From the IMG/VR virus record IMGVR_UViG_2778261180_000001: 29,278 nt of DNA. One strand, 5' to 3'. The translations under genes were made by a program, and so were the position numbers. The stretch is from a virus (lineage: Duplodnaviria; Heunggongvirae; Uroviricota; Caudoviricetes). The notes beneath the pieces are model-generated. The model ran no database searches. It was not told where the DNA came from and saw only the letters and a list, made by a program, of their open reading frames with translations. Positions 1 through 17,846 of the stretch are shown here, one piece after another (position 1 is the stretch's first letter; each line of letters starts with the position of its first letter).

Positions 1-337
1 GAAAACGGGCGTAAACCTTACGCCGGACCACCGTTCCGCCGACCAGACTCTGCAGGTCTTCCGCCATCCCGGTGACCATGCCGTGCAGGTTAGAAACCGT
101 CAGTGTCGGACGGGCAGCACTGCCCTTGCCATTCAGTTCAAATCCCGTCCCCTGAATGGGGTATGCCTGATACTGCCGCCCCTGCCAGGTAACCGGCTCA
201 CCTTTTTCGTTCTGCTCATTACAGAAAAAATAACGTTCACCACCGACCTCTGTCAGATCGATTTCCCAGAGCACCACCTGGGCTGACTGAGTGAGGCGTG
301 TCGTCTCATGATGTGTTTCCTGTGGAATATCCTGCAT
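1..337 (-). CDS. Minor tail protein L (lambda gpL-like), 5' part only; the gene continues past the window start
   Basis: Minus-strand ATG at 337 gives MQDIPQETHHETTRLTQSAQVVLWEIDLTEVGGERYFFCNEQNEKGEPVTWQGRQYQ..., which I recognise as closely matching the lambda L N-terminus. Sits directly downstream of the M homolog. Truncated by the window edge. Confidence 0.85.
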   Translation of the reverse strand, partial: MQDIPQETHHETTRLTQSAQVVLWEIDLTEVGGERYFFCNEQNEKGEPVTWQGRQYQAYPIQGTGFELNGKGSAARPTLTVSNLHGMVTGMAEDLQSLVGGTVVRRKVYARF

Positions 338-346
338 CAGAGCCTC

Positions 347-676
347 CTATGCCACGACCTGTTCAAAATCTGCCGTTATGGTTATCCACAGCGCCCCCAC
401 GCTTGCCGACCATTTACGACAAACCACCCTGATCGGCTTCCAGTCATAAGGTGGCGTCCACTGAAATGCGCGGACGCCACCGTGCCGTTCCAGAAAGGCT
501 TTTAAAGATGGGTGTTCACATTTACGAACACGTATCGTCACGCTGTAAATCGACAACTGGTTATTCAGTCCCGCCGCACGACGCTGTTCATAACCATCGC
601 CCAGCTTCACTGTCACCACTTTCGGCTCTGATACCACATTCATATCCGGGCGCACTTTCCAGTGAAACGTCTCCAT
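347..676 (-). CDS. Minor tail protein M (lambda gpM-like)
   Basis: 109-aa ORF METFHWKVRPDMNVVSEPKVV...WTPPYDWKPIRVVCRKWSA...DFEQVVA resembles lambda M along its length. Its ATG at 676 overlaps the stop of the tape-measure gene. Confidence 0.85.
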   Translation of the reverse strand: METFHWKVRPDMNVVSEPKVVTVKLGDGYEQRRAAGLNNQLSIYSVTIRVRKCEHPSLKAFLERHGGVRAFQWTPPYDWKPIRVVCRKWSASVGALWITITADFEQVVA

Positions 677-3600
677 TACCGATATGCTCCACTTAACCGA
701 CCACCATCACGGGCCTGCTGTTGCATAAAGTCCGCTGCCGCTTTTTTCCCGAGGTCATAAACCACCTTCAGGGCAGCCGGACCTATCTGCCCGTTCGTGC
801 CATCGTTATTGATCTCGATGTTGTACTGCGGGGCAAACATCGCCATACCTGAACCACCAATATCCGCCACAACCCCCAGCTTACCGTCAGCACCACGACG
901 CAGTGGCAGAATGGCTTCAGGTCCCGCTTCCCCCATCACACCCGCGCCTTTTGCAAAAGCAAAAAACGTCGGACGGTTAACCACCGTGCCACTGTAACGA
1001 CTCAAATCAGCAGACTGATAAATCCCCCCATTGGCATTCAGGGAAAGGCTGCTGAGATCAAATCCCAGTACACTGCCAATCCCTTTTATCGATTTCATCA
1101 TGGTTGCCTGCGCCAGGATTTTCGCCATATCTGACAGCACAGAAGAGGTGAAGGATTTGAAATTGAGTTTGCCGGTAGTGACAAAAGTTGCCAGGCCATT
1201 TCCCATGTTGCTGAAGGCTGACGAGAACACCTGTTCTGCTGTTCCTGCCGTATTATCTGCATCCACGGTAAAATCCTGAAATGCACGCAGGACTCCGTTT
1301 TTCCAGTTACCCTGCACAACTTCAAGCTGTTGCCAGTAACGGCGATTCTCATTCAGTTGTCGGTTCAGGCTCTCCGTCAGCGCCTGCTCGGCCTTTCTGT
1401 AGTCATCCGTGTTATATGTTCCTTTCTGCTCACTATCCCGCCTCAACTGCTCCAGCTGTTGCTGGTATTTCTGGCGAAGACTCAGTTGTACCTGATATCG
1501 CTGCCGCTGCTGATCACCCATACCCACAGTGGCGATATCCAGGTCATGTTGCTGACGCTGAGCGCGCTCTTCTTCAGCCAGTTGACTGGTCAGCTGAATT
1601 GTTTTTTTCTTCAGCTCGTTGAGTGCCGTCTGTTTCTGAAGCTCCTGCTGTTTTACATCCAGCAGCGTCAGTGCCTGAATCAGTTCATCTTTACGGGCCA
1701 GCACACTCTTTTCATCTGCCGTCAGTTTTTTCCCGTCCAGGTCGCTGATGCGCTGCTGCAGAGCCAGAAGCTGTTTATGCGCTTCTGTCATCCTTTCCGT
1801 GGCAATGCCTGCTGACTGTCTGGCAGCAGCAATCTGTCCTTCCACCTGTGCCTGTTGCTGACTGTACTGCAGCAATAACCGGGTGGCCTCATCATTACGG
1901 GGGTCGCGTGTTTTTTTCTTACCGGATGCCAGGGCTTTCTCGTAACGTTCATTTTCACGTTGTATCGCCGCATCCCTGACAGCCTGATCGGCGTACTGCA
2001 TGGAATTAATACGCGCAATTTCACGCTGATGTCGTGCTGCTTCCGTTTCATTCATCCGGTTCAGTGCAGCATTTTCAGCATTACGGCGTTTCTGTTGCTC
2101 CTGATAATTCCGCTCTGCCTGCTCTTTTGCATCCTGCAAATCCTTCTGGCGTTTTTTCTCCTGAAGCTCGTTAAGACGCTGCTGATCGTACTCAACCTGA
2201 GAAGATGATGCCGTCCAGGGGAGTCTTTTCGCCCGCGACACTTTCTCCTGTAAAGCGGAAATCTGTTCATCCAGCGAGTCTTCACGACCAATATTCATGG
2301 CCGCATCCCAGAAACGACTCCATAAATCAGACAGATACTTCAGCGTACTGCCCAGCGCATTGAGGTTATTATCAATATCCGCAGTACGCCGACCGGTTTC
2401 CTCTGCCAGTGCAGACATGGCTATCCGTGCCGCATCACTGGACCGCCCCTGTTCCCCAAGGACGCGTATCTGCTCAAGCTGAGTGGCAGTAAGAAAATGC
2501 AGCTCATTGTCCAGAGCCTTCGCGGCATTTACAGGATCATCCTTCAGCCGCTTAAACTGATTTATGGTATCGCTGACCGACTGGCCAACCGATCGCTCCA
2601 TCTGTGCGGCAGCTCTCGCCACCATACCGATATCGTTTCCACGAAATGCACCACTCCCCACCACCTGAGCCAGCGCACCGGCTGCAGCATGTTGCGTAAT
2701 ACCATTCCCGGAAATAGCACGACTGAGCGTCCACAGCTGCCCGGCAGTGACTCCGGCATAATGCCCCGTCAGCGACAACTGGCGGTTAAATTCTTCCCCC
2801 TCCTTCTGACCATCATACCAGGCTTTACCCAGACCATAGACGGCCGCGGCAATACCGCCAATAACCCCGCCCAGCATCATGCCTTTCGGTGACATCAGTG
2901 TGTCTATCCATCCGGCACGGTTAGCCAGCGTTATCCCGGATCCCCTCAGCGCACCTAAATTGCCGCGAGCCAGTTCACCTATCAGAACGCCTATCTCCTG
3001 GCGGGCCGCTGCACTTTTCAGACCCAGCGAATGCGTGGCTTTTCCTGCCTGCTCCATTTTGCGGATATACACTTCTGCAGCACTGCTTACCCCCAGCTGG
3101 GCAGCCTTAGCACGAAGCAACTCAGAAGAAGAAAGATTCTGGCGGGTTGCCTGCTCTTTAAGCTGACGGATAAACGCCACTTTCTGTCGGGTAGCCTCTG
3201 CCTCAGCCTGCGTAAGAACACCGGTTTTCGCCGTAACCTCAGAAATCAGCGCCAGATAATCCTGCTGACCAATCCCGCCACTGTTTCTGGCCTGTCGGAT
3301 CTGCTGCTGAATACGCTGTAATTCCTGCAGTCCCGCACTGGCCTGTTTCACACTGTCAATCTGACGATAAAACGCGGCAGCCGCTTTATCCTGAGCCTCC
3401 GCCAGAGCCATGGCCTGCGCCTGTTCCTCGCGCATTTTCTGGCTCAGTGCCTCCATACGCTGGCGGGTTTGCTCCACCTCGCGGGCCATGCGTTCATGAG
3501 CCTGTGCGCTCTTCTCCACCGTCTGCGCATGGACGGATGCGGCTGTTGCAGCCGAAGAAGCCGCCTGCATTGTCTGCCGGGCGGCCTGAGTCTGACGCTC

Positions 3601-3741
3601 CATAAAACGCTGCATACGGGCAGAAGACCGTTCTGCATCGCTGGCTGCACCATTCAGAAGGTTTTTGATACGGGGAATTTCATTTTTAAACTCTGCCGCA
3701 TCAATCCCCAAATCAATGACCAGGTTGGCTATCTGGTCCAT
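676..3741 (-). CDS. Tail tape measure protein (lambda gpH-like)
   Basis: About 1021 aa, coiled-coil rich (Q/E/A/R-rich middle section), with a C-terminus ...IEINNDGTNGQIGPAALKVVYDLGKKAAADFMQQQARDGG matching the lambda H C-terminus. Start placed at ATG 3741 (MDQIANLVIDLGIDAAEF, like lambda H MAEPVGDLVVDLSLDAARF) with GGAGGTG 6 nt upstream; the longer ORF-track start at 3771 is probably not used. Confidence 0.9.
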   Translation of the reverse strand: MDQIANLVIDLGIDAAEFKNEIPRIKNLLNGAASDAERSSARMQRFMERQTQAARQTMQAASSAATAASVHAQTVEKSAQAHERMAREVEQTRQRMEALSQKMREEQAQAMALAEAQDKAAAAFYRQIDSVKQASAGLQELQRIQQQIRQARNSGGIGQQDYLALISEVTAKTGVLTQAEAEATRQKVAFIRQLKEQATRQNLSSSELLRAKAAQLGVSSAAEVYIRKMEQAGKATHSLGLKSAAARQEIGVLIGELARGNLGALRGSGITLANRAGWIDTLMSPKGMMLGGVIGGIAAAVYGLGKAWYDGQKEGEEFNRQLSLTGHYAGVTAGQLWTLSRAISGNGITQHAAAGALAQVVGSGAFRGNDIGMVARAAAQMERSVGQSVSDTINQFKRLKDDPVNAAKALDNELHFLTATQLEQIRVLGEQGRSSDAARIAMSALAEETGRRTADIDNNLNALGSTLKYLSDLWSRFWDAAMNIGREDSLDEQISALQEKVSRAKRLPWTASSSQVEYDQQRLNELQEKKRQKDLQDAKEQAERNYQEQQKRRNAENAALNRMNETEAARHQREIARINSMQYADQAVRDAAIQRENERYEKALASGKKKTRDPRNDEATRLLLQYSQQQAQVEGQIAAARQSAGIATERMTEAHKQLLALQQRISDLDGKKLTADEKSVLARKDELIQALTLLDVKQQELQKQTALNELKKKTIQLTSQLAEEERAQRQQHDLDIATVGMGDQQRQRYQVQLSLRQKYQQQLEQLRRDSEQKGTYNTDDYRKAEQALTESLNRQLNENRRYWQQLEVVQGNWKNGVLRAFQDFTVDADNTAGTAEQVFSSAFSNMGNGLATFVTTGKLNFKSFTSSVLSDMAKILAQATMMKSIKGIGSVLGFDLSSLSLNANGGIYQSADLSRYSGTVVNRPTFFAFAKGAGVMGEAGPEAILPLRRGADGKLGVVADIGGSGMAMFAPQYNIEINNDGTNGQIGPAALKVVYDLGKKAAADFMQQQARDGGRLSGAYR

Positions 3742-4042
3742 AACGCACACCTCCGGAAATACCTTCCCCAAGATGCATCAGTTCTTCGTCCGTTCGCTCC
3801 GGTATCCCGTTCTCTTCCGGTAAAAGGCTGAAATCAGCCACCGCAGCATCACTGCTACCGGACACCATTCTCACGATCAATGCCTTCAGCGAGGCAAACT
3901 GCGCATCCATCCACACATCACTGAAGCTATGCATCTGGAAATAATCGCCCCATTCACCAAGCTCAGTGGCCGACATTTCCGACAGCATCCGCCGCCAGTC
4001 TGCCCGCCGGAACTCCCGGGCAAGCCGCATGACAAACTGCAT
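3713..4042 (-). CDS. Tail assembly chaperone T-frame ORF, probably expressed only as a G-T fusion by -1 ribosomal frameshift
   Basis: ORF in the -1 frame relative to the G homolog, lying between G and H as in lambda. The T frame opens only within the last 8 codons of G, so a frameshift must occur in ...CCGGAAAAGTCC... (about 4053-4075). The boundaries of the fused product are inferred. Confidence 0.5.
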   Translation of the reverse strand: MQFVMRLAREFRRADWRRMLSEMSATELGEWGDYFQMHSFSDVWMDAQFASLKALIVRMVSGSSDAAVADFSLLPEENGIPERTDEELMHLGEGISGGVRYGPDSQPGH

Positions 4043-4050
4043 TTCCCGCG

Positions 4051-4437
4051 TCAGGACTTTTCCGGCGTCAGCACCTCATGCTCCAAATCCCCGGCATTCT
4101 CAATGGCTCCCATACCGCTCAGCGACAGAACCATCTCCGCCCCCGCTCCTAGGGCATCATACGACCATGTTGTAATAACGGATGCGCAAAGCGTCTCAAC
4201 ATCCTGAGACTGTTCCGCATTCCACAGTGAGCGGGAAACCAGCCAGGCATTGATATCCATCCCCATCCGCAGAAAAGCAATCTGTCGTTCAGCCTCCGGC
4301 AGTTCTCCCTCTTCGGCATCAAACTTTGCCGTTCGCTGCTGAACAAACGCCAGATATTCAATTCTCTGCAGCCCGGACAGCTCACTGAGCACCACGGACT
4401 GCTTTTCATAATTAAACGAGCCCTGTTTCAGAAACAT
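4051..4437 (-). CDS. Tail assembly chaperone G (lambda gpG-like)
   Basis: MFLKQGSFNYEKQSVVLSELSGLQRIEYLAFVQQ... resembles lambda G (MFLKTESFEHNGVTVTLSELSALQRIEHLAL). ATG at 4437 has a GGTGGAGA Shine-Dalgarno. Position between V and H fits. Confidence 0.8.
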   Translation of the reverse strand: MFLKQGSFNYEKQSVVLSELSGLQRIEYLAFVQQRTAKFDAEEGELPEAERQIAFLRMGMDINAWLVSRSLWNAEQSQDVETLCASVITTWSYDALGAGAEMVLSLSGMGAIENAGDLEHEVLTPEKS

Positions 4438-4497
4438 CATGTTCTCCACCTGCAAAAAAGCCCCGGATAACCGGGGCAAATGATGAGTATCGTCCTG

Positions 4498-5241
4498 TTA
4501 ACCTGCGGCGCTGACAGCCACCGCAGCCACGGCCACAAAATCGCCGTCAGAAGTCATGCCCACAATGCTGACACTGCCCTGCTTCACGCCTTTCACCGTG
4601 GCCACAAGCCCGTTCAGGGTCACCGTGGCAGTCTGTGGATCTGTCGAATGCACACTGATCGCTTTGTCACTGGCTCCGTCAGGTTTTACTGTAAAGGTCA
4701 GCGTGGTGGTTGCTCCCACTTTTACACTGGCAGATGCCGGTGCCACCGTCAGCCCGGTAACGCTCACTGTTTCAGTGCCTTCCTCTGCCAGATGCGGACG
4801 CCCCACACCGCTGATTTTCACTGTGCGGGTCATCACGTCTTTTGAGGCAATGGTTTTACCCAGTGAGCTCAGCCAGCCACGGAAAACATCAACAGTGCCG
4901 TTGGGATATTTGATACGAAACGCGCAGACTTCACCGGAGTCGAACAACTGAACCAGTTTTTTCTGCCCGCTGTCACCCGGACGCCAGGCCAGCGTCGCCG
5001 AAGTATCACCGACGGATTTCTGCCCCTGGGTTGTCGTTTTCCAGTCTGCATCTTCATCATCGAGATAAGTGTCATCTTCTGCATCAGCGGTCATTTCGCC
5101 AGGTTGCAGATCCTTCACCATCGCAAGACGCAGCCAGTCAGTGTCCGATAAAGGGTTCGCAAACGCATCGCCCTTGCCGGTGTACATCCAGAACGTCGTT
5201 CCCGCACCTTTCGTTTTTGCCAGTGGATTTGGTGTGGTCAT
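4498..5241 (-). CDS. Major tail protein V (lambda gpV-like) with C-terminal Ig-like domain
   Basis: MTTPNPLAKTKGAGTTFWMY...DDEDADWKTTTQGQKSVGDTSATLAW...YPNGTVDVFRGW matches lambda V. The ATG at 5241 is preceded by AGGAGGTG; the ORF track starts it two codons earlier at a GTG. Confidence 0.9.
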   Translation of the reverse strand: MTTPNPLAKTKGAGTTFWMYTGKGDAFANPLSDTDWLRLAMVKDLQPGEMTADAEDDTYLDDEDADWKTTTQGQKSVGDTSATLAWRPGDSGQKKLVQLFDSGEVCAFRIKYPNGTVDVFRGWLSSLGKTIASKDVMTRTVKISGVGRPHLAEEGTETVSVTGLTVAPASASVKVGATTTLTFTVKPDGASDKAISVHSTDPQTATVTLNGLVATVKGVKQGSVSIVGMTSDGDFVAVAAVAVSAAG

Positions 5242-5252
5242 TGCCACCTCCT

Positions 5253-5666
5253 TTAATTCGTGTACGTGATCTGGTATGTGATTTCCGCCATCGCCCAGGT
5301 GGCCATCTCATTATCACGTTGATAGTTAAAACCGAGAGGGATCAGGGTGTCGATGAGTCCGGAAAGTGCCGGTATATCATTCAGAGCCGGGAAAATGGTG
5401 CTCTCCATCCACATATCCAGCTCTGAATCCGGTGCCTGTGCCCGGATGAAGACAGCAATATGCAGAACAGCCTGCCAGTCATCTTCATCCGTCATTTTTC
5501 CGGTGTACTGAGCATCACTCAGCCACACCGCCACGGCAGGCAGTTCCTGCGCATCAATAAATGCCGGAAGCCCGTCAAAAAACGTGGCGCTGTCTCCACA
5601 CTGTTCCCGAAGGCGTGCCAGTACGGCCTGGCGGATTTGTGTATGTCGGTTCATCGGGTCAGCCAT
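5253..5666 (-). CDS. Tail terminator protein U (lambda gpU-like)
   Basis: ...ATFFDGLPAFIDAQELPAVAVWLSDAQYTG...DSELDMWMESTIFPALNDIPALSGLI... resembles lambda U. The start may instead be the internal ATG at 5654, which overlaps the Z stop as ATGA. Confidence 0.8.
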   Translation of the reverse strand: MADPMNRHTQIRQAVLARLREQCGDSATFFDGLPAFIDAQELPAVAVWLSDAQYTGKMTDEDDWQAVLHIAVFIRAQAPDSELDMWMESTIFPALNDIPALSGLIDTLIPLGFNYQRDNEMATWAMAEITYQITYTN

Positions 5667-6229
5667 AACCTCAGTTGTTGTTTCAGTGCATACCCCAGCT
5701 GTTTCGGCATTTCCGCAGCAATAATGCGGTCGCGGGCATCTTCAAATGCCTGTGTCAGCGGTCCGGACAGCGGGACTTTCACCACATCAATGGGGTAACG
5801 ATTTTTGCCATCAATACGCCGCATCACATGCCAGCGACCATTCGCCAGTTGCTGAATAAACGCATCCCGGAAAAGATATTTACCCACCTTCAGCACACTG
5901 CCACGGTACTGCAGTTTTCCACCACGCCGGGCCAGTCTGACCCGGGCTGTCCCCAGCTTAATAGCGGGCAGATTGCCCCGGTTAACGCGGATCCTGGCCG
6001 TCATTTTTCCTGACGGACTGGCTTTAAACACCCGGACACGCTGACGTACCAGTTTCAGGGGGATCCCTTTCACCTGGTTATCTCCCGCAACGGTATTCCC
6101 GGCAACCTGCCGGGTGGCGACCGAGACCGCTTTCTGTGCCACACGGTTTATCGCCCATGCGCTGGCCTGTGGCACCATACGGGTATCAAGGCTGTTCAGA
6201 TTACGGATGGCATTCTCAAGCCCCTTCAT
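5651..6229 (-). CDS. Minor tail protein Z (lambda gpZ-like)
   Basis: 192 aa; MKGLENAIRNLNSL...AINRVAQKA...NGRWHVMRRIDGKNRYPIDVVKVPL...LGYALKQQLRLWLTR matches lambda Z, including the same length. Confidence 0.8.
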   Translation of the reverse strand: MKGLENAIRNLNSLDTRMVPQASAWAINRVAQKAVSVATRQVAGNTVAGDNQVKGIPLKLVRQRVRVFKASPSGKMTARIRVNRGNLPAIKLGTARVRLARRGGKLQYRGSVLKVGKYLFRDAFIQQLANGRWHVMRRIDGKNRYPIDVVKVPLSGPLTQAFEDARDRIIAAEMPKQLGYALKQQLRLWLTR

Positions 6230-6240
6230 CCCACACCTCT

Positions 6241-6516
6241 TTACTCAATAAAGATCATTGGCTTACCGTTAAAACGTTCATGCCGTGTGACCGTCCATTG
6301 TTGTCCGTCATAAACAACGCGATCCCCGCGCCGTGGGCGGTATCCCGAAGAAAACACCACCAGAGAGACCGCAGGTCCGGACAGAGCATTCAGCTCTGCC
6401 AGTGTTTCTCCCGGGATCACAGTCATATCGGCATCATTAATCGAGGCTGTCTTTCCCATCTTTCTGACCGTGATCGCATCCATATGCGCTGCCAGCCGGG
6501 AAAAGGGATCAGACAT
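6241..6516 (-). CDS. Head-tail connector protein (lambda gpFII-like)
   Basis: 91 aa; the C-terminal RRGDRVVYDGQQWTVTRH resembles lambda FII RRGDTLTIGEENFWVDRV. Lies immediately upstream of Z as FII does in lambda. Confidence 0.6.
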   Translation of the reverse strand: MSDPFSRLAAHMDAITVRKMGKTASINDADMTVIPGETLAELNALSGPAVSLVVFSSGYRPRRGDRVVYDGQQWTVTRHERFNGKPMIFIE

Positions 6517-6832
6517 TGAGTTTTACCGGCACTTCTTCTGCACTGGTTCCGGCATCTGCCCAGACAACCCCGACCAGCGGATCAGAGCCGCTGTTAGTCA
6601 GCTGAACTTTTCCGGACTTCAGATAAACCTTCTTACCCGTTTTCATGTCATCCGTTTTCAGCTTAGGCAGCATAAACACACCTTCGGTCATGCCGTCGCC
6701 TGTTTCACCCTGTGGAATATCGGTCAGCGCCACCGCAAAAACATCACCCACCTGCACCAGATCTCCGCTGCTGATGGCTGCACTGGCAACAATCGCCACC
6801 GTTTTTCCTTCTTCTACAAAATTCTTTGCCAT
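6509..6832 (-). CDS. Small phage head-region protein (DUF2190-like), between capsid gene and FII-like gene
   Basis: ATG at 6832 with a GGAGA Shine-Dalgarno gives MAKNFVEEGKTVAIVASAAISSGDLVQVGDVFAVALTDIPQGETGDG... The family assignment is from memory of proteins commonly found after HK97-fold capsid genes; function is unknown. Confidence 0.55.
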   Translation of the reverse strand: MAKNFVEEGKTVAIVASAAISSGDLVQVGDVFAVALTDIPQGETGDGMTEGVFMLPKLKTDDMKTGKKVYLKSGKVQLTNSGSDPLVGVVWADAGTSAEEVPVKLNV

Positions 6833-6843
6833 AACTGTCTCCG

Positions 6844-6894
6844 CACAGCCCCGTTCAGGGGCTGATTTCAGGTACAAAAAAAGCCCTTACGGGC
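6844..6894 (-). terminator. Two tandem stem-loops downstream of the capsid gene; the second is followed by a T-run on the minus strand (attenuator or RNA-stabilising hairpins)
   Basis: Seen directly: CAGCCCCgttcaGGGGCTG (7-bp stem) and, on the minus strand, GGCCCgtaaGGGCTTTTTTT. Confidence 0.45.
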
Positions 6895-6918
6895 CATCAG
6901 AGTTGTTGTCTGCGACGT

Positions 6919-8877
6919 TTACGCCGTACATTTCACCAGACCGCGGTGATCAACTGGCGCGACACCGGCGTCAATACGCACTTTCGTTGTCACGCCATCC
7001 ACACTGAAGCCCTCCATCTGATCAATATATGGCGTATCCACACCGTTGAGATAAGCCACTTCAATCGTATCGGAGCCTTTTGACGCAGCCAGGTAGAAGG
7101 TGGTCTGGCTGTTATCATCAAGACGAGGCTCTGCAATAACGGTCGCAAAATCTTTCACCGGGTTAATAATACCGGCGTTAATGTCAGCCCCCTTGACACT
7201 TGAGGAGCGAATGACCTGGTTAGCAACAGACTCCATCGCCGTCGGTACCAGTACGAACGCAGGACGAATATTCAGATGACGCTCCCCCTCTTTCTGAACG
7301 CGCATCAACTGGCGGGCTTTATCCAGCGATGCCACGTCCATTGCAGCGCTCTCCAGTACGTTTGCATGTTTCGCTTTATCGAACAGACTTACATTATCTG
7401 TGGAGATTTTCGGGTTAGACGTCAGAATGGCATAAACCAGATCGGCAATAGTGGATTTCGCCGCACGGCCCAGTTTCATCGGGACATCGGTCAGCATATT
7501 CAGATCATCATTGATAATGGCCTGACGGGTGATACTGAACAGCTCGCCATAGGTCGCCAGTGCAATAGTGGCCTGTTTATCTCCGGTGGTGACGTATTTA
7601 TATTCCGCCCCTTCACGCACCTGACGCAGAGCACTGAAGCCCCCCATACCCACACGATGGGCAATTTTAAAATCAGACAACTGACCTTTCCGCGTCCACT
7701 GTTCATAGGTTTCAGGAGCATCTTCCCAGCCCTGCAGAATGGCTTTGTTCGCAACATCCAGCAGAATATTACCGAAGTCAGACGTACTGTGTGTGAACGC
7801 CGCACCGACCATCTGCATCGGGTTATAACTGGAAACCCCAATACCCCGTTCAGTCAGTGACATACGGGCATATTCACGCAGGGTCATCCCGTTGTAGACA
7901 TTATCACGTTCGGTTTTTTCAAATCCGGCACGCGCCATCAGCGCCTGGCGGATCCCGTCCCCCACAAAATTACCGTTACCGGCATAAATATGAGCCGGTG
8001 TATTTTTATTGGATGGCGTGGACTCGCGCCCCATCTCGTTCAACAGCTTTTCGCGGGCCTGCTCCAGCGAACATTCAGGATCGGCAAGACACTGAGCCTG
8101 CAGCGTCTGATAACGCCCGCCAAACATGGCAAACAGATCATTAATACCGTTTACACGCGCTTTTTGCTCTGCCAGTACCTGCGCACGGATACTGTTTTCA
8201 TCCACCACGGGTGCTGCTGCCTGCACTGGCGTCCGGGAGGCTGCAGGTTCATCATCCTGTACGCGTGGAGCACTGTTGCGTGGCGGAGTAATCATGTTTC
8301 GAATGGATTCCGGCATCTTTTTAAATTCCTCTGTACGTTTTGACTGAATACATGCCATTGCCTTAACGGCTGGCGTCACCTGATCAGCAAATCCATGTGC
8401 CAGACATTCGGCACCGGACATCCAGGTCTCATCCGCCAGCATGGCAGCAATTTCATCGGTGGTTTTCCCGGTTTTCTGTGCATAAGCGGGTAACAGAACC
8501 GCCTCAACCTTATCGAGCAGGTCGGCATAGGTGCGCATGTCCTCCGCATCACCGCCCGTAAAGCCAAATGGTTTATGAATCATCATGAAGGTGTTTTCCG
8601 GCATAATGACCGGGTTTCCCACCATCGCAATGACCGACGCCATTGACGCCGCCACACCGTCGACATAAACGGTAATGGACGCACCATGTGTTTTCAGTGC
8701 ATTAAAAATGGCGATGCCTTCAAAGACATCGCCACCCGGTGAATTGATATGGAGATTAATGTGGGTGATATCGCCCAGTGCATTCAGATCACTGATAAAC
8801 TGCTTCGCTGTAACACCCCAGAAACCAATCTCGTCATAAATATAAATATCCGCGTCACTCTGGTGACCAGCCTGCAT
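6919..8877 (-). CDS. Prohead protease - scaffold - major capsid fusion protein (ClpP-like protease domain, coiled-coil linker, HK97-fold capsid domain)
   Basis: N-terminal part has ClpP-type motifs (HINSPGGDVFEG, GVAASMASVIAMVG). The middle is a predicted coiled coil. The C-terminal roughly 400 aa look like an HK97-type major capsid protein. Start inferred at ATG 8877, overlapping the portal stop; the ORF-track start at 9138 lies inside the portal gene. Confidence 0.75.
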   Translation of the reverse strand: MQAGHQSDADIYIYDEIGFWGVTAKQFISDLNALGDITHINLHINSPGGDVFEGIAIFNALKTHGASITVYVDGVAASMASVIAMVGNPVIMPENTFMMIHKPFGFTGGDAEDMRTYADLLDKVEAVLLPAYAQKTGKTTDEIAAMLADETWMSGAECLAHGFADQVTPAVKAMACIQSKRTEEFKKMPESIRNMITPPRNSAPRVQDDEPAASRTPVQAAAPVVDENSIRAQVLAEQKARVNGINDLFAMFGGRYQTLQAQCLADPECSLEQAREKLLNEMGRESTPSNKNTPAHIYAGNGNFVGDGIRQALMARAGFEKTERDNVYNGMTLREYARMSLTERGIGVSSYNPMQMVGAAFTHSTSDFGNILLDVANKAILQGWEDAPETYEQWTRKGQLSDFKIAHRVGMGGFSALRQVREGAEYKYVTTGDKQATIALATYGELFSITRQAIINDDLNMLTDVPMKLGRAAKSTIADLVYAILTSNPKISTDNVSLFDKAKHANVLESAAMDVASLDKARQLMRVQKEGERHLNIRPAFVLVPTAMESVANQVIRSSSVKGADINAGIINPVKDFATVIAEPRLDDNSQTTFYLAASKGSDTIEVAYLNGVDTPYIDQMEGFSVDGVTTKVRIDAGVAPVDHRGLVKCTA

Positions 8878-8890
8878 CCTGAACCAGGAA

Positions 8891-10399
8891 TTATTCTTCG
8901 GACTGGTCGTCGGTGTGCTGCGGCTCCTGTCGTTTCGTTGCGGCACTGCTGCCTCCTTTATCACTGGCCGGATCGGTATCAAATACCAGATCCAGCGTGC
9001 GGTTTTCATCAATTTCGGCCTTGCGCCGACGTTTGACATCATCCGGATTACGACCACCTGCACGTACCCAGTCTGATTCTGTCGCTGCTCCACCACGAAT
9101 CTGAATTTTCCAGGCCTCAGCCTCCTTAACAGGGTCAATCCACGGCATCACCGGTCCGGAATACACCGCGGTATACAGTGAAGAACGGTCAAGATCGCGG
9201 GGTAGCCTGATAACACCGGATGCCACAGCCTGTTTCAGCCAGGCACGATACATCGGGCGGGTGACGGCACCAATAAACCAGTCCTGCAGGATCAGGTAGC
9301 CATCAGTGGATTCAACCAGCTCCTGACGCTGGGCGCTGTAAGTGCCGTTATAGTTGCGTGCCGTACTGGAAAAACTCAGACGACTGCCCGCCGCCACGGC
9401 ACGCAACTGACCATTACGAAAAGTTTCAAGGTTAGGATTGGGACGATCCGACTTCACCATTCCGATTTCTTCGCCGGGTTTCAGATCGTCGTAAATAATG
9501 CCTGGCTGAATGGTAAGCTCGCGTTCCTTATCCTTGCTGCCATTACCATCCGGTTCATAGCTCTGCCCGTCGCCTTTCCGGATGTACATCCCCAGAGCAG
9601 CGGCGATCCTTGCTGCAGTCAGCTCAGAATCTTCATACTCTTTCAGGGCACTGAGGCGGATCAGCACACCGGACAACAAAGACGTCCCGCGCATCTGGTG
9701 CAGACGGCGAACAAATTTAAGATGCAGCATTCGCTCTGCATCCACTTCTTTGGTTTCCATCTGCCGTCCGGATACGGGACGACTTTTATACACCAGATAT
9801 TTTTCGGGACGCCCCCAGTCATCAACAAACACGCCCTGATTCAGCCTGTTGCTCTCATCACTGGTCATGGGAATAAAGTCCGGCTCGAGTGCCTCCAGCC
9901 AGAAATGAACACCGGCAGAAGGCGTCAGGCTGTTTATGCGCCCGGAAACCATCTGGACAAACACCTCACCATCGCGCAGCCAGGTACGCAGCATCAGACG
10001 TTCCAGCATCGGACGGGTAAACTGCCCGGTGACTTCCGGGCTGACAGACCATTCACTCCATCGGGTGCGAATCTCCGCAGCCAGGTCACGGGCAATGGCC
10101 CCATTGCGTAATACCGGATGTGGCTCGACAATAATCCCGTTTTTCCCCACCACCCGTTCTTCCAGCTTGTCAAATACACCAATGACCAGATCGTGGTTGT
10201 TATCAAGGTAACGGGCCTGCTCACGTAACGACACGGCCCCGTACTGGCTTAACTGGTCGGCAGTTCGGTTTTCCCGCCGGGCTTTGTGTGTCCGCGTCGT
10301 TTTTACGGCCTCATAAGCCTGGATCACCGCACGGGAACGCAGCCTTGCCGCTTTCCATCCTGGTGAAAAAACGCCAATCACATCATCAAGAATTGCCAT
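8891..10399 (-). CDS. Portal protein (lambda gpB-like)
   Basis: About 502 aa, placed between the terminase large subunit / W and the protease. Start inferred at ATG 10399 (MAILDDVIGVF...), which overlaps the W stop as TGATG. Confidence 0.85.
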   Translation of the reverse strand: MAILDDVIGVFSPGWKAARLRSRAVIQAYEAVKTTRTHKARRENRTADQLSQYGAVSLREQARYLDNNHDLVIGVFDKLEERVVGKNGIIVEPHPVLRNGAIARDLAAEIRTRWSEWSVSPEVTGQFTRPMLERLMLRTWLRDGEVFVQMVSGRINSLTPSAGVHFWLEALEPDFIPMTSDESNRLNQGVFVDDWGRPEKYLVYKSRPVSGRQMETKEVDAERMLHLKFVRRLHQMRGTSLLSGVLIRLSALKEYEDSELTAARIAAALGMYIRKGDGQSYEPDGNGSKDKERELTIQPGIIYDDLKPGEEIGMVKSDRPNPNLETFRNGQLRAVAAGSRLSFSSTARNYNGTYSAQRQELVESTDGYLILQDWFIGAVTRPMYRAWLKQAVASGVIRLPRDLDRSSLYTAVYSGPVMPWIDPVKEAEAWKIQIRGGAATESDWVRAGGRNPDDVKRRRKAEIDENRTLDLVFDTDPASDKGGSSAATKRQEPQHTDDQSEE

Positions 10400-10617
10400 C
10401 AGAACCTCGCCAGCCGGTACCCGGGATGCCCCCGTCGTCGTGTAATCAGAGCCGCAAGGCGGCGCTCCCACTCCTGCCGCCCCTGCCGGATCTCAGATAA
10501 GTTTTCCATGGTCATCTGCTGACCATTAAAGGTGACGGATTTTCCGTCCAGCACCGCCATTTCAGCTTCCGTATAACGCTGAATCATGGCTTCGATATCA
10601 TTCTGGTTCATAACCAT
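10399..10617 (-). CDS. Head-tail joining protein W-like
   Basis: 72 aa with C-terminus ...RRLAALITRRRGHPGYRLARF resembling lambda W (...MTQRRRGPAGFYV). Lies between the terminase large subunit and the portal as in lambda. Confidence 0.7.
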   Translation of the reverse strand: MVMNQNDIEAMIQRYTEAEMAVLDGKSVTFNGQQMTMENLSEIRQGRQEWERRLAALITRRRGHPGYRLARF

Positions 10618-12710
10618 CCTCCGGAAGTCAGCCAGGGGTTAACATCGTCAGTTACTGTTTTCTTCCGTTTTTGTTTTTTAACAGGCGTGGATACCGGTTC
10701 CGGTGTGGGTGACGGTTCGGTACTGTCCGGGACACACTCCAGCCAGGTTTCCCGGCTCGCCCACTCCGGTGCATCCGGCCAGCGGATCTTTTCGTATCCA
10801 TGCAGAATGACCAGAGCCTCGGCATACACCATCAGGTCAAAAGCTTCGTTGGCACCGCGACCTGGCTTACTCCATTTCCCGTCACTGCTCCGCTCTTCAT
10901 ACGTCAGTTCGTCGTAAAACCAACTCCCCAGCCAGTCAGGGAAATGCACATAGCCGGGACCTGGCGAGTCACGCCATAACGCGTTATTCACCCGGTCTTT
11001 CAGTGCATCCGTCTGAAGAAGCCAGAGCGGCACATCACCTGCGGCCTGCGCCCGTCGGCCCGTTCGTCCGGTGTTATCAGGGAATGTACGGGTGATCAGT
11101 TTTGCGCGCCGGATGCTGTCGCCCTTAAACAGGTAAATACGTTTACCAAGGCCATCACGACGGCAACGACGCCAGAATTTATAGGCATTATCAGTGACCC
11201 CGTCTTCACCGCCGGAGTCCACCGCCATTGCCATCAGTCGCATTTGTTGAGAAGGATCGGAGGCCAGCGGCCAGCTTTTATGAAAAACATCCGTCAGCAG
11301 GACATCCCAGTCTTCCGGATAGCTGGCCGGATCAATTCGCTGGCTCTCCCCGTCGCTGTCACCGCGCAATGACTGCGTGATGTTGTAACGATCAATAATC
11401 CAGCGTTCGCCACGGCTGCCATAGCCCGTTACCTGAACCACAAAACGGCGATGACGTCCCGCCTGCACATCCACTGTCGCCACAAGGAAATTAACGCCAT
11501 CCGGCACACTGCGGGAAGGAACTGGCTCTGCCCGCTGCTCAAGCAGTTCACTTTTTCGTTGCTCCATGCTGGCGCGGGGAAGATAAGGTAATCCCCAGTC
11601 GGTATTGATAACCGTCTTGAGTGTTTCTTCACTTCCGGTTGTCTCGTATTCCTGTTCTGCAGTAAGCAGTTTGTAAACGAGTTGCGAGAGTGTCTGGTAA
11701 GCAGCTGCCGGACCCTCCATCCAGAATGACGCAATACGTGAGCGTCGGGGATCACCATAACGACTGCCATCCGCATTGATGGATTCACCATCCCGCAACC
11801 AGACCCCACGTCCGTTCAGCTCACGTTTTTGTTCAGGCATAATCCGTCCTGAACAGGAAGGACACTGAATATAAGCCGCCTCACTTGCCAGCACGGGATC
11901 GGCAATATCACGGAAACCAGCAACCACATCGCCGCAGGGCTGAAAATACTCACCACAGTGTGGACAAGGCCAGTACCAGCGACGGCGATCGCCACGGTTA
12001 TAGAGCGACAGTATCCCCGTGGTTGGTGGAGCCTCATGCGGTGAAGTCCGTCGCCATTTCACATCCTTCACATCCCTGCCGGGGGAACTCTCCACAAGCG
12101 TCATACCACTGGACATAAATGTTGTGGTACGTTTTGAGGCAAGAGAGAAAGCATCCCCCTCGCCATCAATATCTTCCGGAAAACGGTCATAATCCGTCAG
12201 CGCGACGCATTTATAATCTGATGAGGACATGATATTGACTGACGGCCAGCCGATTTTCAGGTAGTTACCAGCAAGGAATGTTCTGTCATAAACGTTGTTG
12301 TCATTTTTGTTCGGACTCAGGCGACTGACCACTTCCGGGCTGACGCGAAACGTTCTGGCGAGTCGTTTTTTGGAGTGTTCGCGGGCTTTTTCCTCCGTCA
12401 TCTGTATGATCAGCATATCAGCAGGATCGCAAATCACGTTGTAAATCACCCAGCCGTCAATCAGGCCGATAGTCTTGCCGGTTCGTGCCGGGCCAACAAA
12501 TATCACTGCGTCGTATTCACGCGAGGCCAGGCAGTTCATCGGCTCAATAACATACGGTGCCACCAGCGGATCCCACGGGACTGAGTTCCCTGCCCCCATG
12601 GGCACCCGCATATACTGAGCAACGGCATCAGCAACCCGCATTCGTCTCGGTGCGCGAAGGATATAACCTGAATCGGTTCGTGCTGCCTTTGCGGTTTCCT
12701 GATTCAGCAT
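10608..12710 (-). CDS. Terminase large subunit (lambda gpA-like)
   Basis: 700 aa with a Walker A-like FVGPARTGKT and a Cys cluster (CPHCGEYF...CPSCSG). The ATG at 12710 has a GGGAGGAG Shine-Dalgarno and overlaps the small-subunit stop as TAATG. Confidence 0.9.
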   Translation of the reverse strand: MLNQETAKAARTDSGYILRAPRRMRVADAVAQYMRVPMGAGNSVPWDPLVAPYVIEPMNCLASREYDAVIFVGPARTGKTIGLIDGWVIYNVICDPADMLIIQMTEEKAREHSKKRLARTFRVSPEVVSRLSPNKNDNNVYDRTFLAGNYLKIGWPSVNIMSSSDYKCVALTDYDRFPEDIDGEGDAFSLASKRTTTFMSSGMTLVESSPGRDVKDVKWRRTSPHEAPPTTGILSLYNRGDRRRWYWPCPHCGEYFQPCGDVVAGFRDIADPVLASEAAYIQCPSCSGRIMPEQKRELNGRGVWLRDGESINADGSRYGDPRRSRIASFWMEGPAAAYQTLSQLVYKLLTAEQEYETTGSEETLKTVINTDWGLPYLPRASMEQRKSELLEQRAEPVPSRSVPDGVNFLVATVDVQAGRHRRFVVQVTGYGSRGERWIIDRYNITQSLRGDSDGESQRIDPASYPEDWDVLLTDVFHKSWPLASDPSQQMRLMAMAVDSGGEDGVTDNAYKFWRRCRRDGLGKRIYLFKGDSIRRAKLITRTFPDNTGRTGRRAQAAGDVPLWLLQTDALKDRVNNALWRDSPGPGYVHFPDWLGSWFYDELTYEERSSDGKWSKPGRGANEAFDLMVYAEALVILHGYEKIRWPDAPEWASRETWLECVPDSTEPSPTPEPVSTPVKKQKRKKTVTDDVNPWLTSGGWL

Positions 12711-13204
12711 TACTCCTCCCGCTGTAATTCCTCCTCATCATCCGCACCTGCTTCGGTCACCCGCAGGGCTATCTGATCGCGCAGATCATCAATAATGGAC
12801 TGAACACGGCTCACAGCGGCAGGCTGCAGACCGCAGTCACGTTCAAGAATATCCGGTAATGTCTCCAGCACCTGCACGACCGCTTTTGCCCAGATGGCAA
12901 ACTCCCGTCTGACATCACTGGCCGGAATGAGTTGTGCCGTTTCCTGTTCGAACTTAAGACGCTCACGTTCAGACTGATACCAGGCTTTGCGCTCATGCGC
13001 GTCCATTTCGCCTTCTGCAACCGGCGGTGGTAATGCCAGAAATGCCGACACAATATCAACCACCCGATAAAGCTTGAGGTTGCTTTCATGCCCCCCTGCA
13101 ACGGGTAGATTTTGCAGCCTTGCCGCAGCAGTCTGGCGATGTACACCTGACAGAGCCGCCAGTTGACTGATATTCAGCGTCAGATTTTTTAACTCTCGAT
13201 CCAT
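12710..13204 (-). CDS. Terminase small subunit (Nu1-like)
   Basis: 164 aa with an N-terminal HTH-like segment (LTLNISQLAALSGVHRQTAAARL). First gene downstream of the cos-like site and directly upstream of the large subunit. Confidence 0.7.
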   Translation of the reverse strand: MDRELKNLTLNISQLAALSGVHRQTAAARLQNLPVAGGHESNLKLYRVVDIVSAFLALPPPVAEGEMDAHERKAWYQSERERLKFEQETAQLIPASDVRREFAIWAKAVVQVLETLPDILERDCGLQPAAVSRVQSIIDDLRDQIALRVTEAGADDEEELQREE

Positions 13205-13368
13205 ACCCGCTCCAGAATGTTTTAAACATGCATCTTGCGAACAACTTTAGGCAAACGGTGTTAGTGATGAACAAAAAACAATCAAAATCGACACCACAAA
13301 AATAAAACCACTGTAATATCAATACATTACAGTAGTGGTGATGACGAATGAAATTTCAAAAACTAGCC

Positions 13369-13775: not shown

Positions 13776-14468
13776 ATGTCTAGAGAAGGCTCGTTGGACT
13801 TATTGCAAGAAGTTGAAGAAAGTCTTGACATAATGAGACAGACACAGCATATCAAGCCTGTAAAAGTCAAAGCTATTTTGGAAAACTTACGAAGTTCCTT
13901 AGAGTATCTCGCTAATGATACCTATGATAAATATATTTCTCCACGCAGTAATGATGAGCGCCCCAAAATATATTTCCCTTACGGAAAAAAAGAGTTTATT
14001 GATAAATTTTTCTCAAAGACGCTAAAAATAAACCCACCATCATCTTCTCCATTATATAAAATTTTTACTTCTATACAGGATTATCACACTGGCGAATCTT
14101 GGTTGGAAATGATGTGTAATCTCACTAATGAAGTAAAGCACAGACAACCAATCCCCTTAAGAGAAGAGAGTTCTGTTAAAGACCTAAGTGTGAGCGTAGA
14201 TGGTTTTGGTTTAATCACAGCAGGAAGCTCAGCAAAAATTCTCTTTAAAAACAACCACATCAATGGCAAAAAATTAGAAGACTTTACTTTCGAAAATGGG
14301 AAATTACAAAGAAGTGGTAATGGTGTACCTTTAAACATAGTCATTACCGAAGAGAAAAAAATAAGATTCCATGGGAATGACCATGAAGTAATTCCTTTCA
14401 TTGAATCATGCCTTATTAAAATCAGAATTTTTATTATCGAAGCCTATAATGAGTTAGATAAGATTTGA
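13776..14468 (+). CDS. Hypothetical 230-aa protein in an AT-rich moron, antisense to the late operon (candidate lysogen-expressed cargo, possibly defence or exclusion)
   Basis: ATG at 13776 preceded by AAAGGAGA. The gene and its flanks (about 13560-14640) are markedly more AT-rich than the phage backbone. I recognise no family. The position between Rz and cos is the slot occupied by bor in lambda. Confidence 0.6.
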   Translation: MSREGSLDLLQEVEESLDIMRQTQHIKPVKVKAILENLRSSLEYLANDTYDKYISPRSNDERPKIYFPYGKKEFIDKFFSKTLKINPPSSSPLYKIFTSIQDYHTGESWLEMMCNLTNEVKHRQPIPLREESSVKDLSVSVDGFGLITAGSSAKILFKNNHINGKKLEDFTFENGKLQRSGNGVPLNIVITEEKKIRFHGNDHEVIPFIESCLIKIRIFIIEAYNELDKI

Positions 14469-16871: not shown

Positions 16872-17267
16872 CTAACCTCGCATGTCAAAGCCAGATTTCT
16901 GAAAATCTCTGTAGACTTCCGGATTGTTGAAGGCCGGAAATTTGGCTTTATGAGCTGCGGACTTTATCGCTTCGCAATAGGCTTTATCACCGTTACTGGT
17001 AGATATTTTTAACGCCGTGCCATCCTGAGAGAATTCCATATGCAACCTGCATTTTTTCCCTTTCCAGTTATGCGGCTCATCAAGTTTGGCATTAATTGCA
17101 GCTCTGATTCCCCGCGCTTGCGCCCCCCATTCATCCTGATCATCCCAGCGTCCTGAACTGCAACTACCTGTAGCAGTAGTTTTGTGGCAATCTGAAGGGT
17201 GTAAAGGTGTGCATCCCGCAACAAAACTGACCCAAAAAGTCAACATAACGATTTTCTTTAATCCCAC
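16872..17267 (-). CDS. Lipoprotein with a TolA C-terminal (TolA-III)-like domain
   Basis: GTG start with a GAGGAG Shine-Dalgarno; signal peptide and lipobox (MGLKKIVMLTFWVSFVAGC). The C-terminal part (KKCRLHMEFSQDGTALKISTSNGDKAYCEAIKSAAHKAKFPAFNNPEVYRDFQKSGFDM) resembles the E. coli TolA C-terminus as I recall it, and is paralogous to the next gene. Confidence 0.7.
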   Translation of the reverse strand: MGLKKIVMLTFWVSFVAGCTPLHPSDCHKTTATGSCSSGRWDDQDEWGAQARGIRAAINAKLDEPHNWKGKKCRLHMEFSQDGTALKISTSNGDKAYCEAIKSAAHKAKFPAFNNPEVYRDFQKSGFDMRG

Positions 17268-17417: not shown

Positions 17418-17846
17418 TCAGGGTTTAAAATCCAGCACCCCATTTTGAAATACTTTATATACTTCCGGCGAAGGGGGGGCAGGTATATCAGCATTCTTTA
17501 TCGCATTCATCGCTTCACGACATAAATCGAGGTCTCCACTTTCTCTTTTAACCTCCAGTAGAAGGCCATTCGGGGCCATATGCATTCTCAGTGTACACTC
17601 TTTTCCTGAATACTTACTCGCATCCCCGAACTGTTTTTCGATGGCGCTCTTGATTTGATGGGCATACAGACGGATATCCTCACTAACATCAGAAGTACGT
17701 TCAGATGAACTCACATACTGTGTCTCTATTGCTTTATCGGAGTAATATGATGTACGGTCATGATAATTTGTCGATACAGCATCAGTGCACCCGATAATAA
17801 TCCCACTAATAATCAACGTAAGAATTGATGCGCTACGAAAACCCAT
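17418..17846 (-). CDS. Lipoprotein with a TolA C-terminal (TolA-III)-like domain, paralog of the previous gene
   Basis: ATG with a GAGGA Shine-Dalgarno; lipobox IIGC. C-terminus YAHQIKSAIEKQFGDASKYSGKECTLRMHMAPNGLLLEVKRESGDLDLCREAMNAIKNADIPAPPSPEVYKVFQNGVLDFKP closely resembles the TolA-III segment ...AGQIKSAIESKFYDASSYAGKTCTLRIKLAPDGMLLDIKPEGGDPALCQAALAAAKLAKIPKPPSQAVYEVFKNAPLDFKP (recalled). Confidence 0.7.
   Translation of the reverse strand: MGFRSASILTLIISGIIIGCTDAVSTNYHDRTSYYSDKAIETQYVSSSERTSDVSEDIRLYAHQIKSAIEKQFGDASKYSGKECTLRMHMAPNGLLLEVKRESGDLDLCREAMNAIKNADIPAPPSPEVYKVFQNGVLDFKP

Follow-up and report, generated by a model that had tools for sequence, protein, structure and literature searches.

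A fused protease-capsid gene of Gifsy-2/mEp460-type lambdoid prophages with a conserved internal start that may give a second, protease-less product

INTRODUCTION

In phage lambda, gene C contains an in-frame internal start for the scaffold protein Nu3, and a protease-scaffold fusion and free scaffold are thus both produced. In HK97, the capsid protein gp5 is made as a precursor whose N-terminal helical delta domain, 102 aa long, does the scaffolding and is then cut off by the prohead protease. A comparable concept is found in the herpesvirus pair UL26/UL26.5, in which a tethered protease is accompanied by a shorter, in-frame, co-terminal product of the same open reading frame (ORF). A "tripartite capsid gene" homologous to the gene described here is present in the Salmonella phage Gifsy-2 and was reportedly the subject of a cryo-EM study (Effantin et al. 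2010, Virology 402:355). A passage of one report, citing that study, describes the protease and coat genes of Gifsy-2 as fused (PMC12315714). The Gifsy-2 capsid has T=7 geometry (PMC8814770, Table 1) and carries cement protein trimers at its 3-fold axes (PMC8538268). One capsid-finding pipeline missed the HK97-fold capsid protein of Gifsy-2 (PMC8814770), and automatic capsid-protein finders can overlook a fusion gene of this kind.

Here, we analyzed a fused head gene in a 29,278-nucleotide stretch of viral DNA (IMG/VR record IMGVR_UViG_2778261180_000001), referred to below as the window. The gene is the head gene of Gifsy-2/mEp460-type lambdoid prophages. The fusion itself is already known because it has a curated family (NF045540), is widely distributed in Escherichia coli and in phages, and has a studied relative in Gifsy-2; the remark in the initial annotation that the arrangement occurs in some prophages was thus correct. 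The sole new item would be that comparison among relatives points to a second start, conserved and internal to the frame, from which a protease-less copy of the protein would be made.

RESULTS

One reading frame encodes a ClpP-like protease and an HK97-fold capsid protein

The gene is a single, uninterrupted ORF on the minus strand, with its TAA stop codon at 6921-6919 and the frame open up to 9138 (Table 1). The initial annotation had read positions 6919-8877, which translate into 652 aa with no internal stop, as a ClpP-like prohead protease, a coiled-coil scaffold and an HK97-fold capsid protein in one ORF. Domain searches, named in the initial annotation as a check that could overturn its reading, located both the protease and the capsid protein in the same frame, as matches to Pfam CLP_protease (aa 23-168, E=4e-36) and Phage_capsid_4 (PF25209; aa 352-649, E=7e-55). 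The NCBIfam model NF045540, [quoted passage not shown] scored 985.2 bits (cutoff, 475), aligning end to end (residues 9-651 with model positions 2-651 of 652) and having a name that fits the fusion exactly, and the match to PHROG 133 likewise spans the full length. In the full-length coding sequence (CDS), the order of domains is ClpP-like protease, linker, helical domain and major capsid protein.

Table 1. Features of the fused head gene and its surroundings (window coordinates; aa positions in the full-length protein)
Feature	Position	Strand	Remarks
Lambda-family portal gene, upstream	8891..10399	-	Phage_portal_2, 4e-82
Shine-Dalgarno AAGGAGG for GTG 8946	8952..8958	-	within portal gene 3' end
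Full-length CDS (probable start)	6919..8946	-	675 aa + stop, 73.5 kDa; PGAP, Shine-Dalgarno energies, upstream-start conservation
ClpP-fold (peptidase S14-like) head-maturation protease domain	8374..8880	-	aa 23-191
Catalytic Ser101	codon 8646-8644	-	alignment to ClpP 1y7o
Catalytic His124	codon 8577-8575	-	alignment to ClpP 1y7o
Glu173	codon 8430-8428	-	aligns with catalytic Asp of ClpP
Internal Shine-Dalgarno-like GAGGA	8327..8331	-	10 nt upstream of ATG 8316
Proposed nested in-frame CDS, start ATG 8316 (Met211)	6919..8316	-	465 aa, 50.7 kDa
Hypervariable Pro/Ala/Thr/Gln-rich disordered linker	8212..8280	-	aa 223-245, pLDDT <50
Conserved three-helix central domain, putative scaffold	8026..8202	-	aa 249-307, AlphaFold model
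Disordered segment	7969..8025	-	aa 308-326, pLDDT ~54; 317-324 <50
HK97-fold major capsid protein domain	6922..7968	-	aa 327-675, ~38-40 kDa after predicted cleavage
Terminator-like hairpin GGCCC-GTAA-GGGCT, then T7	6872..6895	-	23 nt past stop codon
Head decoration (cement) protein gene, DUF2190, downstream	6509..6832	-	107 aa; Phage_cement_2, 9e-21

The N-terminal domain exceeded the cutoff of NCBIfam NF045542, "head maturation protease, ClpP-related" (216 bits versus 120), and fell below those of the cellular ClpP models TIGR00493 (59.7 versus 308.6 bits) and NF001368 (79.6 versus 249); the SppA_dom model gave only 22 bits (cutoff, 155), the best match being ClpP-type. Judged by these profile scores, the domain is of the ClpP fold and is not a ClpP orthologue. 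Among 131 representatives, S101 is conserved in 100%, H124 in 99% and E173 in 85%, and S101 and H124 are invariant among 104 sequences. From its place in the alignment, Glu173 is probably the third catalytic residue beside Ser101 and His124.

The central region consists of three short helices between two disordered linkers

The structure was modeled with AlphaFold from 104 diverse sequences (mean pLDDT of 87.9), this model being used instead of one from 27 close homologues, which was unusable (mean pLDDT of 44). The central region contains helices at aa 250-273, 280-288 and 294-307 (675-aa numbering; pLDDT of 91 to 97), and its best heptad register places hydrophobic residues at 4 of 7 a/d positions. 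The three-helix model and the weak heptad pattern do not support a long coiled coil. Of the three-part fusion proposed initially, the protease, a scaffold-like center and the HK97-fold capsid protein stand, whereas a coiled-coil nature of the center is unsupported. By analogy to the delta domain, the three-helix domain, of roughly 60 residues, is a putative scaffold. The linker that precedes it shows no conservation among relatives, with indels and length polymorphism. The segment that follows it is, because of its disorder in the model, the most likely zone for the cut that would release the capsid protein during maturation.

Translation of the full-length protein probably starts at GTG 8946

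The PGAP CDS at 6995-9022 of locus L001 corresponds to 8946-6919 of the window, i.e., to a start at GTG 8946, 69 nt upstream of the ATG at 8877 that the initial annotation had chosen and that is also the equivalent start in GenBank phage records. The GTG is preceded 5 nt upstream by AAGGAGG, with a duplex energy of -11.6 kcal/mol, whereas ATG 8877 is practically without a Shine-Dalgarno sequence (-2.2 kcal/mol). AAAGGAGG at the upstream start is kept in most enterobacterial loci. Among 77 loci, 39 have GTG as the start codon of the full-length protein. Trp21, which lies upstream of Met24 (the ATG 8877 codon), is kept in all 76 aligned relatives, while 28 loci have I, L or F in place of Met24. 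Because of the Shine-Dalgarno strength, the PGAP start and the conservation of Trp21 versus Met24, GTG 8946 is probably the true start; ATG 8877 is less likely, given its weak Shine-Dalgarno, the variability of Met24 and the mRNA structure.

The fusion is widespread and embedded in a lambdoid head module

Many E. coli chromosomes carry the fusion gene at 100% DNA identity, and matches occur in 2,125 of 5,426 complete E. coli genomes (about 40%), with query coverage of at least 80% in 2,017 of them. The isolated, viable phages mEp460, cdtI, Ayreon, Tritos and PhiR55_1 carry the same single ORF, at 99 to 100% nucleotide identity over both the gene and the whole 13-kb structural module, and differ from the window in nothing of substance. 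The fusion architecture is kept in 80 genomes of many genera. Of the best 150 cluster representatives, more than 120 share it, at 35 to 60% identity.

The gene lies between the portal and decoration genes of a lambdoid head module, in the order terminase, gpW-like gene, portal, fusion gene and decoration gene, which is common to Gifsy-2, MD8, mEp460 and E. coli ECC-1470. It overlaps the portal gene by 56 nt, and the hairpin downstream of its stop codon coincides in position with a rho-independent terminator annotated in the mEp460 record. The Gifsy-2 "tripartite capsid gene" (CDS 22471-24561, NC_010393) likewise encodes the protease first, then the central domain and the capsid domain, its product being 70% identical over the whole length, and has the same neighbors, namely a lambda-type terminase, a gpW-like gene, a portal gene and a gene for a decoration protein of the DUF2190 type (61% identical). 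It differs in host and in the sequence of the variable linker, with no functional distinction.

An internal Shine-Dalgarno sequence and ATG are conserved upstream of the scaffold-like domain

Within the frame, ATG 8316 (Met211) opens a shorter CDS for the scaffold-like domain and the capsid protein, without the protease. In 80 related loci of 51 to 99% identity, covering Enterobacterales, Pseudomonas, Shewanella, Psychromonas, Photobacterium and Ferrimonas, Met211 is invariant and the start codon is ATG every time; it is also invariant in the 27-sequence alignment. About 7 to 10 nt before it is an AGGA-type motif, read as xAG-GAx in 78 of the 80 loci, the remaining 2 (L055 and L060) having GGAG from AUG-GAG. 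The residues encoded at this motif vary (EE, ED, QE, KD or KE), and the wobble position of codon 206 is nevertheless G in 80 of 80 loci, the sole column at 100% among 25 E/K/Q columns; third-position G ranges from 13 to 89% in the other 24, with a gene-wide median of 51%. A naive probability of 1e-26 for codon 206 overstates the significance because the 80 loci share phylogeny. The stretch around Met211 is otherwise variable, and nearby synonymous sites vary freely.

The mRNA near ATG 8316 is weakly structured (-4.6 kcal/mol) compared to that at the other two candidate starts (-12.1 and -16.7 kcal/mol). The internal Shine-Dalgarno is moderate, at about -6 kcal/mol and with a long, 10-nt spacer, and the upstream start is stronger (-11.6 kcal/mol). 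Met211 is not a family-wide feature, as it is present in 5% of the 131 wider-family representatives of 35 to 60% identity, with the next residue, Pro212, 93% conserved; a nested start would therefore be clade-specific. The Gifsy-2 gene has the same conserved internal Shine-Dalgarno and ATG.

Altogether, the retention of the motif and the ATG by synonymous codon choice suggests a nested 465-aa scaffold-capsid product, and on this comparative evidence we regard use of ATG 8316 as reasonably probable. None of the database records examined, including those of Gifsy-2, MD8, mEp460 and E. coli ECC-1470, annotates a nested CDS, and a literature search on processing or internal starts, the primary Gifsy-2 capsid study lying outside its coverage, found nothing. 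That the start is both used and previously undescribed, such that the Gifsy-2/mEp460 clade would have two nested genes here, is a more tentative proposition.

DISCUSSION

The explanation that we somewhat favor for these data is a head gene with two products, a full-length and a nested protein, that would co-assemble and then be cleaved; the picture of one self-cutting polyprotein may be incomplete if, as the conserved internal Shine-Dalgarno and ATG suggest, a second, protease-less product is also made. The main competitor, to which we give distinctly less weight, is that only the full-length polyprotein is made, so that a protease and a scaffold come with each capsid subunit and trimming after assembly involves all 415 copies, with AGGA-N(7-10)-ATG reflecting a protein-level constraint or some other nucleotide-level function. 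The ORF is continuous, its strongest Shine-Dalgarno is at the upstream start, every database record annotates one CDS, and most of the wider family lacks Met211, so that the fusion evidently can work without it. A 1:1 ratio is also possible in terms of space, since 415 copies of 34 kDa amount to ~14 MDa, by a rough estimate ~40% of the T=7 procapsid cavity. What speaks against a single product is the pattern around the internal ATG: the codon 206 wobble G is fixed across all loci while the residue switches among E, Q and K, neighboring synonymous sites are free to vary, and Met211 stays invariant within an otherwise variable stretch. A protein-level constraint does not account for synonymous codon choice.

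Two further readings concern the fusion and its protease. The fusion could be artificial, two genes for protease and capsid having been run together through a sequencing error, a frameshift or pseudogenization, and some database entries are indeed chimeric (proteins of 1027-1135 aa that also have terminase or portal domains), while some PHROGs span the protein only in part. The initial annotation had named a frameshift between separate genes as what would overturn its fusion; none was found, and the identity of the continuous ORF in many independent complete genomes, its presence in viable phages and the persistence of the architecture in distant representatives and across the 80 genomes refute an artifact, to which we assign practically no probability. 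It is also very improbable that the N-terminal domain is a housekeeping-type ClpP carried as cargo, as a partner of host ClpX or ClpA. Such a role would fit its sequence and fold similarity to cellular ClpP and the many database names reading "Clp protease ClpP," but the domain scores far under the cutoffs of every true ClpP model and above that of NF045542, is covalently fused to the capsid protein, and is encoded between portal and decoration genes.

In the two-product pathway that we infer, the 73.5-kDa full-length protein from GTG 8946 and the 50.7-kDa protease-less scaffold-capsid protein from ATG 8316 would co-assemble via their capsid domains on a lambda-type portal into a T=7 procapsid, which would put the tethered proteases and the helical domains inside the shell. 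Full-length, protease-carrying subunits would be a minority among nested subunits, and the protease-to-capsid ratio would be set by translation rather than fixed at 1:1. The protease would cut the disordered segment at about aa 308-326, probably along with other places, after which the N-terminal pieces would leave and the shell would expand during DNA packaging, to be stabilized by trimers of the downstream DUF2190 cement protein. For the fused gene, the T=7 geometry and the cement trimers, this scheme draws by analogy on the literature on Gifsy-2, whose protein is 70% identical. If real, the nested start would explain how 415 proteases per procapsid are avoided despite the covalent fusion, and would represent a further independent case of a protease-scaffold plus a nested scaffold, beside lambda and the herpesviruses.

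The locus resembles lambda C/Nu3/E/D in its lambda-family portal and terminase and in a T=7 head decorated by protein trimers, and the nested start proposed here would follow the C/Nu3 strategy. It differs in that lambda gpC belongs to the S49/SppA family whereas the present protease is ClpP (S14)-like, in that the lambda capsid protein gpE is encoded by a separate gene whereas the capsid domain here is fused, and in the decoration protein, which is of the gpD family in lambda and of DUF2190/Phage_cement_2 here. With ~105 residues ahead of the capsid domain, the proposed nested product would resemble HK97 gp5. The HK97-type delta domain is a helical coiled coil of ~100 aa fused directly to the capsid protein, and in the present protein a helical domain (aa 249-307) with a weak heptad signal precedes the capsid domain. 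The HK97 protease gp4 is the product of a separate gene with a herpesvirus-assemblin-like fold, unlike the fused ClpP-fold domain; and the HK97 shell is cross-linked and without a decoration protein, whereas the phage studied here has a cement protein gene. In herpesviruses, the protease fold is unrelated, the capsid protein lies outside the ORF, and the more abundant nested scaffold UL26.5 is made from a separate promoter rather than from an internal ribosome-binding site as proposed here.

The fusion gene is named "protease/scaffold," "Nu3," "C" or "major head protein" in GenBank phage records, and the same gene is elsewhere labeled "protease C," "scaffold" or "ClpP," which gives the present analysis a value for annotation. 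The frame also contains further in-frame internal starts with Shine-Dalgarno-like sequences, at 8538, 7341/7335 and 7002, all of which lie within folded domains.

Architecture of the fusion gene

In a Pfam search of the gene initially annotated as a fusion of ClpP-like protease, coiled-coil scaffold and HK97-fold capsid protein, CLP_protease was found at the N-terminus (4e-36) and Phage_capsid_4 at the C-terminus (7e-55) of the single ORF, as had been predicted. The NCBIfam model NF045540 aligned end to end with the product at 985 bits (cutoff, 475), and PHROG 133 likewise spans the entire protein. The protein also scored above the cutoff of NF045542, a phage-specific protease model, and far below the cutoff of every genuine ClpP model in NCBIfam.

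An AlphaFold model based on 27 close homologues was useless (pLDDT of 44); a second, based on 104 sequences at 34-96% identity, reached a pLDDT of 87.9 and was used for the domain division listed in the table. A Foldseek search against viral models returned a "Major capsid protein" match (TM 0.81, 3.0 Å) and an HK97-family match. The proposed coiled-coil middle was not borne out: no central helix exceeds 24 residues, and in the best heptad register only 4 of 7 core positions are hydrophobic. In the protease domain, Ser101 and His124 are invariant in the aligned sequences (His124, 99% among wider representatives). The ClpP catalytic Asp aligns with Glu173, 85% conserved across the family, and the neighboring Asp172 is poorly conserved, a pattern that suggests a Ser-His-Glu triad in this phage protease class.

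Features of the fusion gene and its surroundings (residues numbered from GTG 8946)
Feature	Position	Basis or remark
Fusion gene, probable extent	8946-6919 (-)	675 aa, 73.5 kDa
ClpP-like domain	residues 23-191	AlphaFold, 104-sequence model
Moderately confident stretch	residues 192-222	AlphaFold, 104-sequence model
Disordered, hypervariable, indel-rich linker	residues 223-245	AlphaFold model and alignment
Three short helices, high confidence	residues 250-307	AlphaFold, 104-sequence model
Second disordered stretch	residues 308-326	AlphaFold, 104-sequence model
Capsid domain	residues 327-675	AlphaFold, 104-sequence model
Glu173 codon	8428-8430 (-)	alignment with ClpP
Terminator-like hairpin with T7 tail	6872-6895 (-)	
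DUF1441 protein gene	12710-13204 (-)	
230-aa ORF	13776-14468 (+)	
TolA-domain ORF	16872-17267 (-)	E=1e-14
TolA-domain ORF	17418-17846 (-)	E=2e-23
Q antiterminator gene	19245-20066	
356-aa ORF	23541-24611 (-)	
Low-GC island	13-15 kb	GC 0.39-0.41
Low-GC island	23-25 kb	GC 0.32-0.37

Choice of start codon

The open frame extends from 9138 to TAA 6921-6919, and 652 uninterrupted residues are obtained by translating 8877-6919. The upstream portal gene, of the lambda family (Phage_portal_2, 4e-82), ends at 8891, and the fusion gene must therefore start nearby. Of the two candidates, ATG 8877 (Met24) is the equivalent of the start in the mEp460 GenBank record, but its Shine-Dalgarno sequence is essentially absent (-2.2 kcal/mol), whereas GTG 8946, the choice of the NCBI pipeline PGAP, is preceded by AAGGAGG (-11.6 kcal/mol). 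Relatives also favor GTG 8946, since Trp21, N-terminal to Met24, is found in all 76 relatives aligned at its column, 28 loci have Ile, Leu or Phe in place of Met24, and a AAAGGAGG-type site recurs across Enterobacterales about 20 codons ahead of Trp21. Thus, the uninterrupted frame of the initial annotation stands, while its start at 8877 is probably to be moved to GTG 8946, which gives an overlap of 56 nt with the portal gene.

Distribution of the fusion

The fusion gene is already known. Many E. coli chromosomes carry it at 100% DNA identity, where PGAP assigns it the NF045540 name, and a match is present in 2,125 of 5,426 complete E. coli genomes. The isolated phages PhiR55_1, mEp460, cdtI, Ayreon and Tritos have it at 99-100% identity, and across the whole structural module (1-13229) identity to Ayreon and mEp460 is about 99%. 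Pseudomonas phage MD8 encodes a homologue at 57% identity in shared synteny, and hundreds of Pseudomonas proteins bear the curated NF045540 name. Among the best 150 representatives at the 50% clustering level, more than 120 have the complete fusion, with identities of 35-60%. Because the same architecture recurs in E. coli chromosomes, isolated phages and distant representatives, an artefactual fusion was excluded. The initial annotation is correct in placing protease and capsid protein in one ORF.

Several database proteins of 750-1135 aa, P0006, P0033, P0061 and P0080 among them, carry terminase, portal or tail-protein domains in addition to the fusion protein; these are more probably chimeras created by assembly or gene calling in draft genomes than true larger fusions. 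The gene also occurs in metagenome-assembled 'Bacillota bacterium' (L005, 99%), 'Proteobacteria bacterium (soil)' (L007, 99%) and 'Geobacteraceae bacterium' (L012, 73%), likely mis-binned or contaminating Enterobacteriaceae contigs.

A candidate internal start

When every in-frame start codon was scored for Shine-Dalgarno complementarity, ATG 8316 (Met211) stood out, lying directly past the protease domain behind GAGGA and a 10-nt A/U-rich spacer; mRNA structure around it is weak, and the putative ribosome-binding site is moderate in strength. Gifsy-2 and MD8 share this arrangement of Shine-Dalgarno-like motif and internal ATG. We compared 80 related loci with identities of 51-99%; each species contributed a single genome, and many gamma-proteobacterial genera were represented. 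Met211 is kept in all 80, and xAG-GAx lies in the two codons about 7-10 nt ahead of its ATG in 78; the other two (L055 and L060) form a GGAG core from AUG-GAG at unchanged spacing. The residues encoded by the motif codons differ (Glu-Glu, Glu-Asp, Gln-Glu, Lys-Asp or Lys-Glu). As a control, the share of G-ending codons was determined in each of the 25 alignment columns where Glu, Lys or Gln predominates: codon 206 was the sole column with a G-ending codon in all 80 loci, the remainder ranging from 13% to 89% (gene-wide median, 51%), and nearby synonymous sites vary freely. This conservation suggests selection on the nucleotides for a ribosome-binding site, the 80 loci not being independent, and because of this signature we propose a nested protease-less product of 465 aa (50.7 kDa). 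Its approximately 105 residues before the capsid domain are near the HK97 delta domain in size. In the wider family Met211 is not conserved and Pro212 is 93% conserved. The nested CDS is annotated in none of the E. coli, mEp460, MD8 and Gifsy-2 records compared.

Proposed head assembly

The Salmonella phage Gifsy-2 product is 70% identical to the fusion protein over its full length, and the DUF2190/Phage_cement_2 protein encoded downstream shares 61% identity with its Gifsy-2 counterpart. For Gifsy-2, PMC12315714 describes fused prohead-protease and coat genes, PMC8538268 cement-protein trimers on the 3-fold axes and PMC8814770 a T=7 capsid; all three cite Effantin et al. 2010. For the fusion gene itself, the analysis established domain identity, folds, synteny and conservation, and head geometry and decoration are carried over from the Gifsy-2 work. 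In the most likely mechanism, the full-length product, and probably the nested one as well, would assemble through its capsid domain into a portal-based T=7 procapsid, with the tethered protease and helical domain inside the shell. A cut in the second disordered stretch would free the capsid protein (about 38-40 kDa), and the DUF2190 cement protein would stabilize the expanded shell; what we infer here is internal start use, stoichiometry and cleavage position.

Other features of the window

Directly past the capsid gene end and ahead of the decoration gene lies a terminator-like hairpin, annotated as a rho-independent terminator at the equivalent site in the mEp460 record; under Q antitermination it could tune expression of the downstream genes relative to that of the capsid. 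Two adjacent small ORFs between the Q gene and the lysis genes each encode a TolA C-terminal domain; such phage-encoded proteins could hinder the entry of colicins or filamentous phages. The low-GC islands hold the 230- and 356-aa ORFs, neither with a Pfam match. The former, on the strand opposite all late genes, with the terminase small-subunit gene on one side and the lysis genes on the other, has a position typical of a moron (cargo gene). The DUF1441 gene lies directly upstream of the large terminase gene, and since its counterpart in the mEp460 and Gifsy-2 records is the terminase small subunit, the Pfam label 'unknown function' is outdated here.
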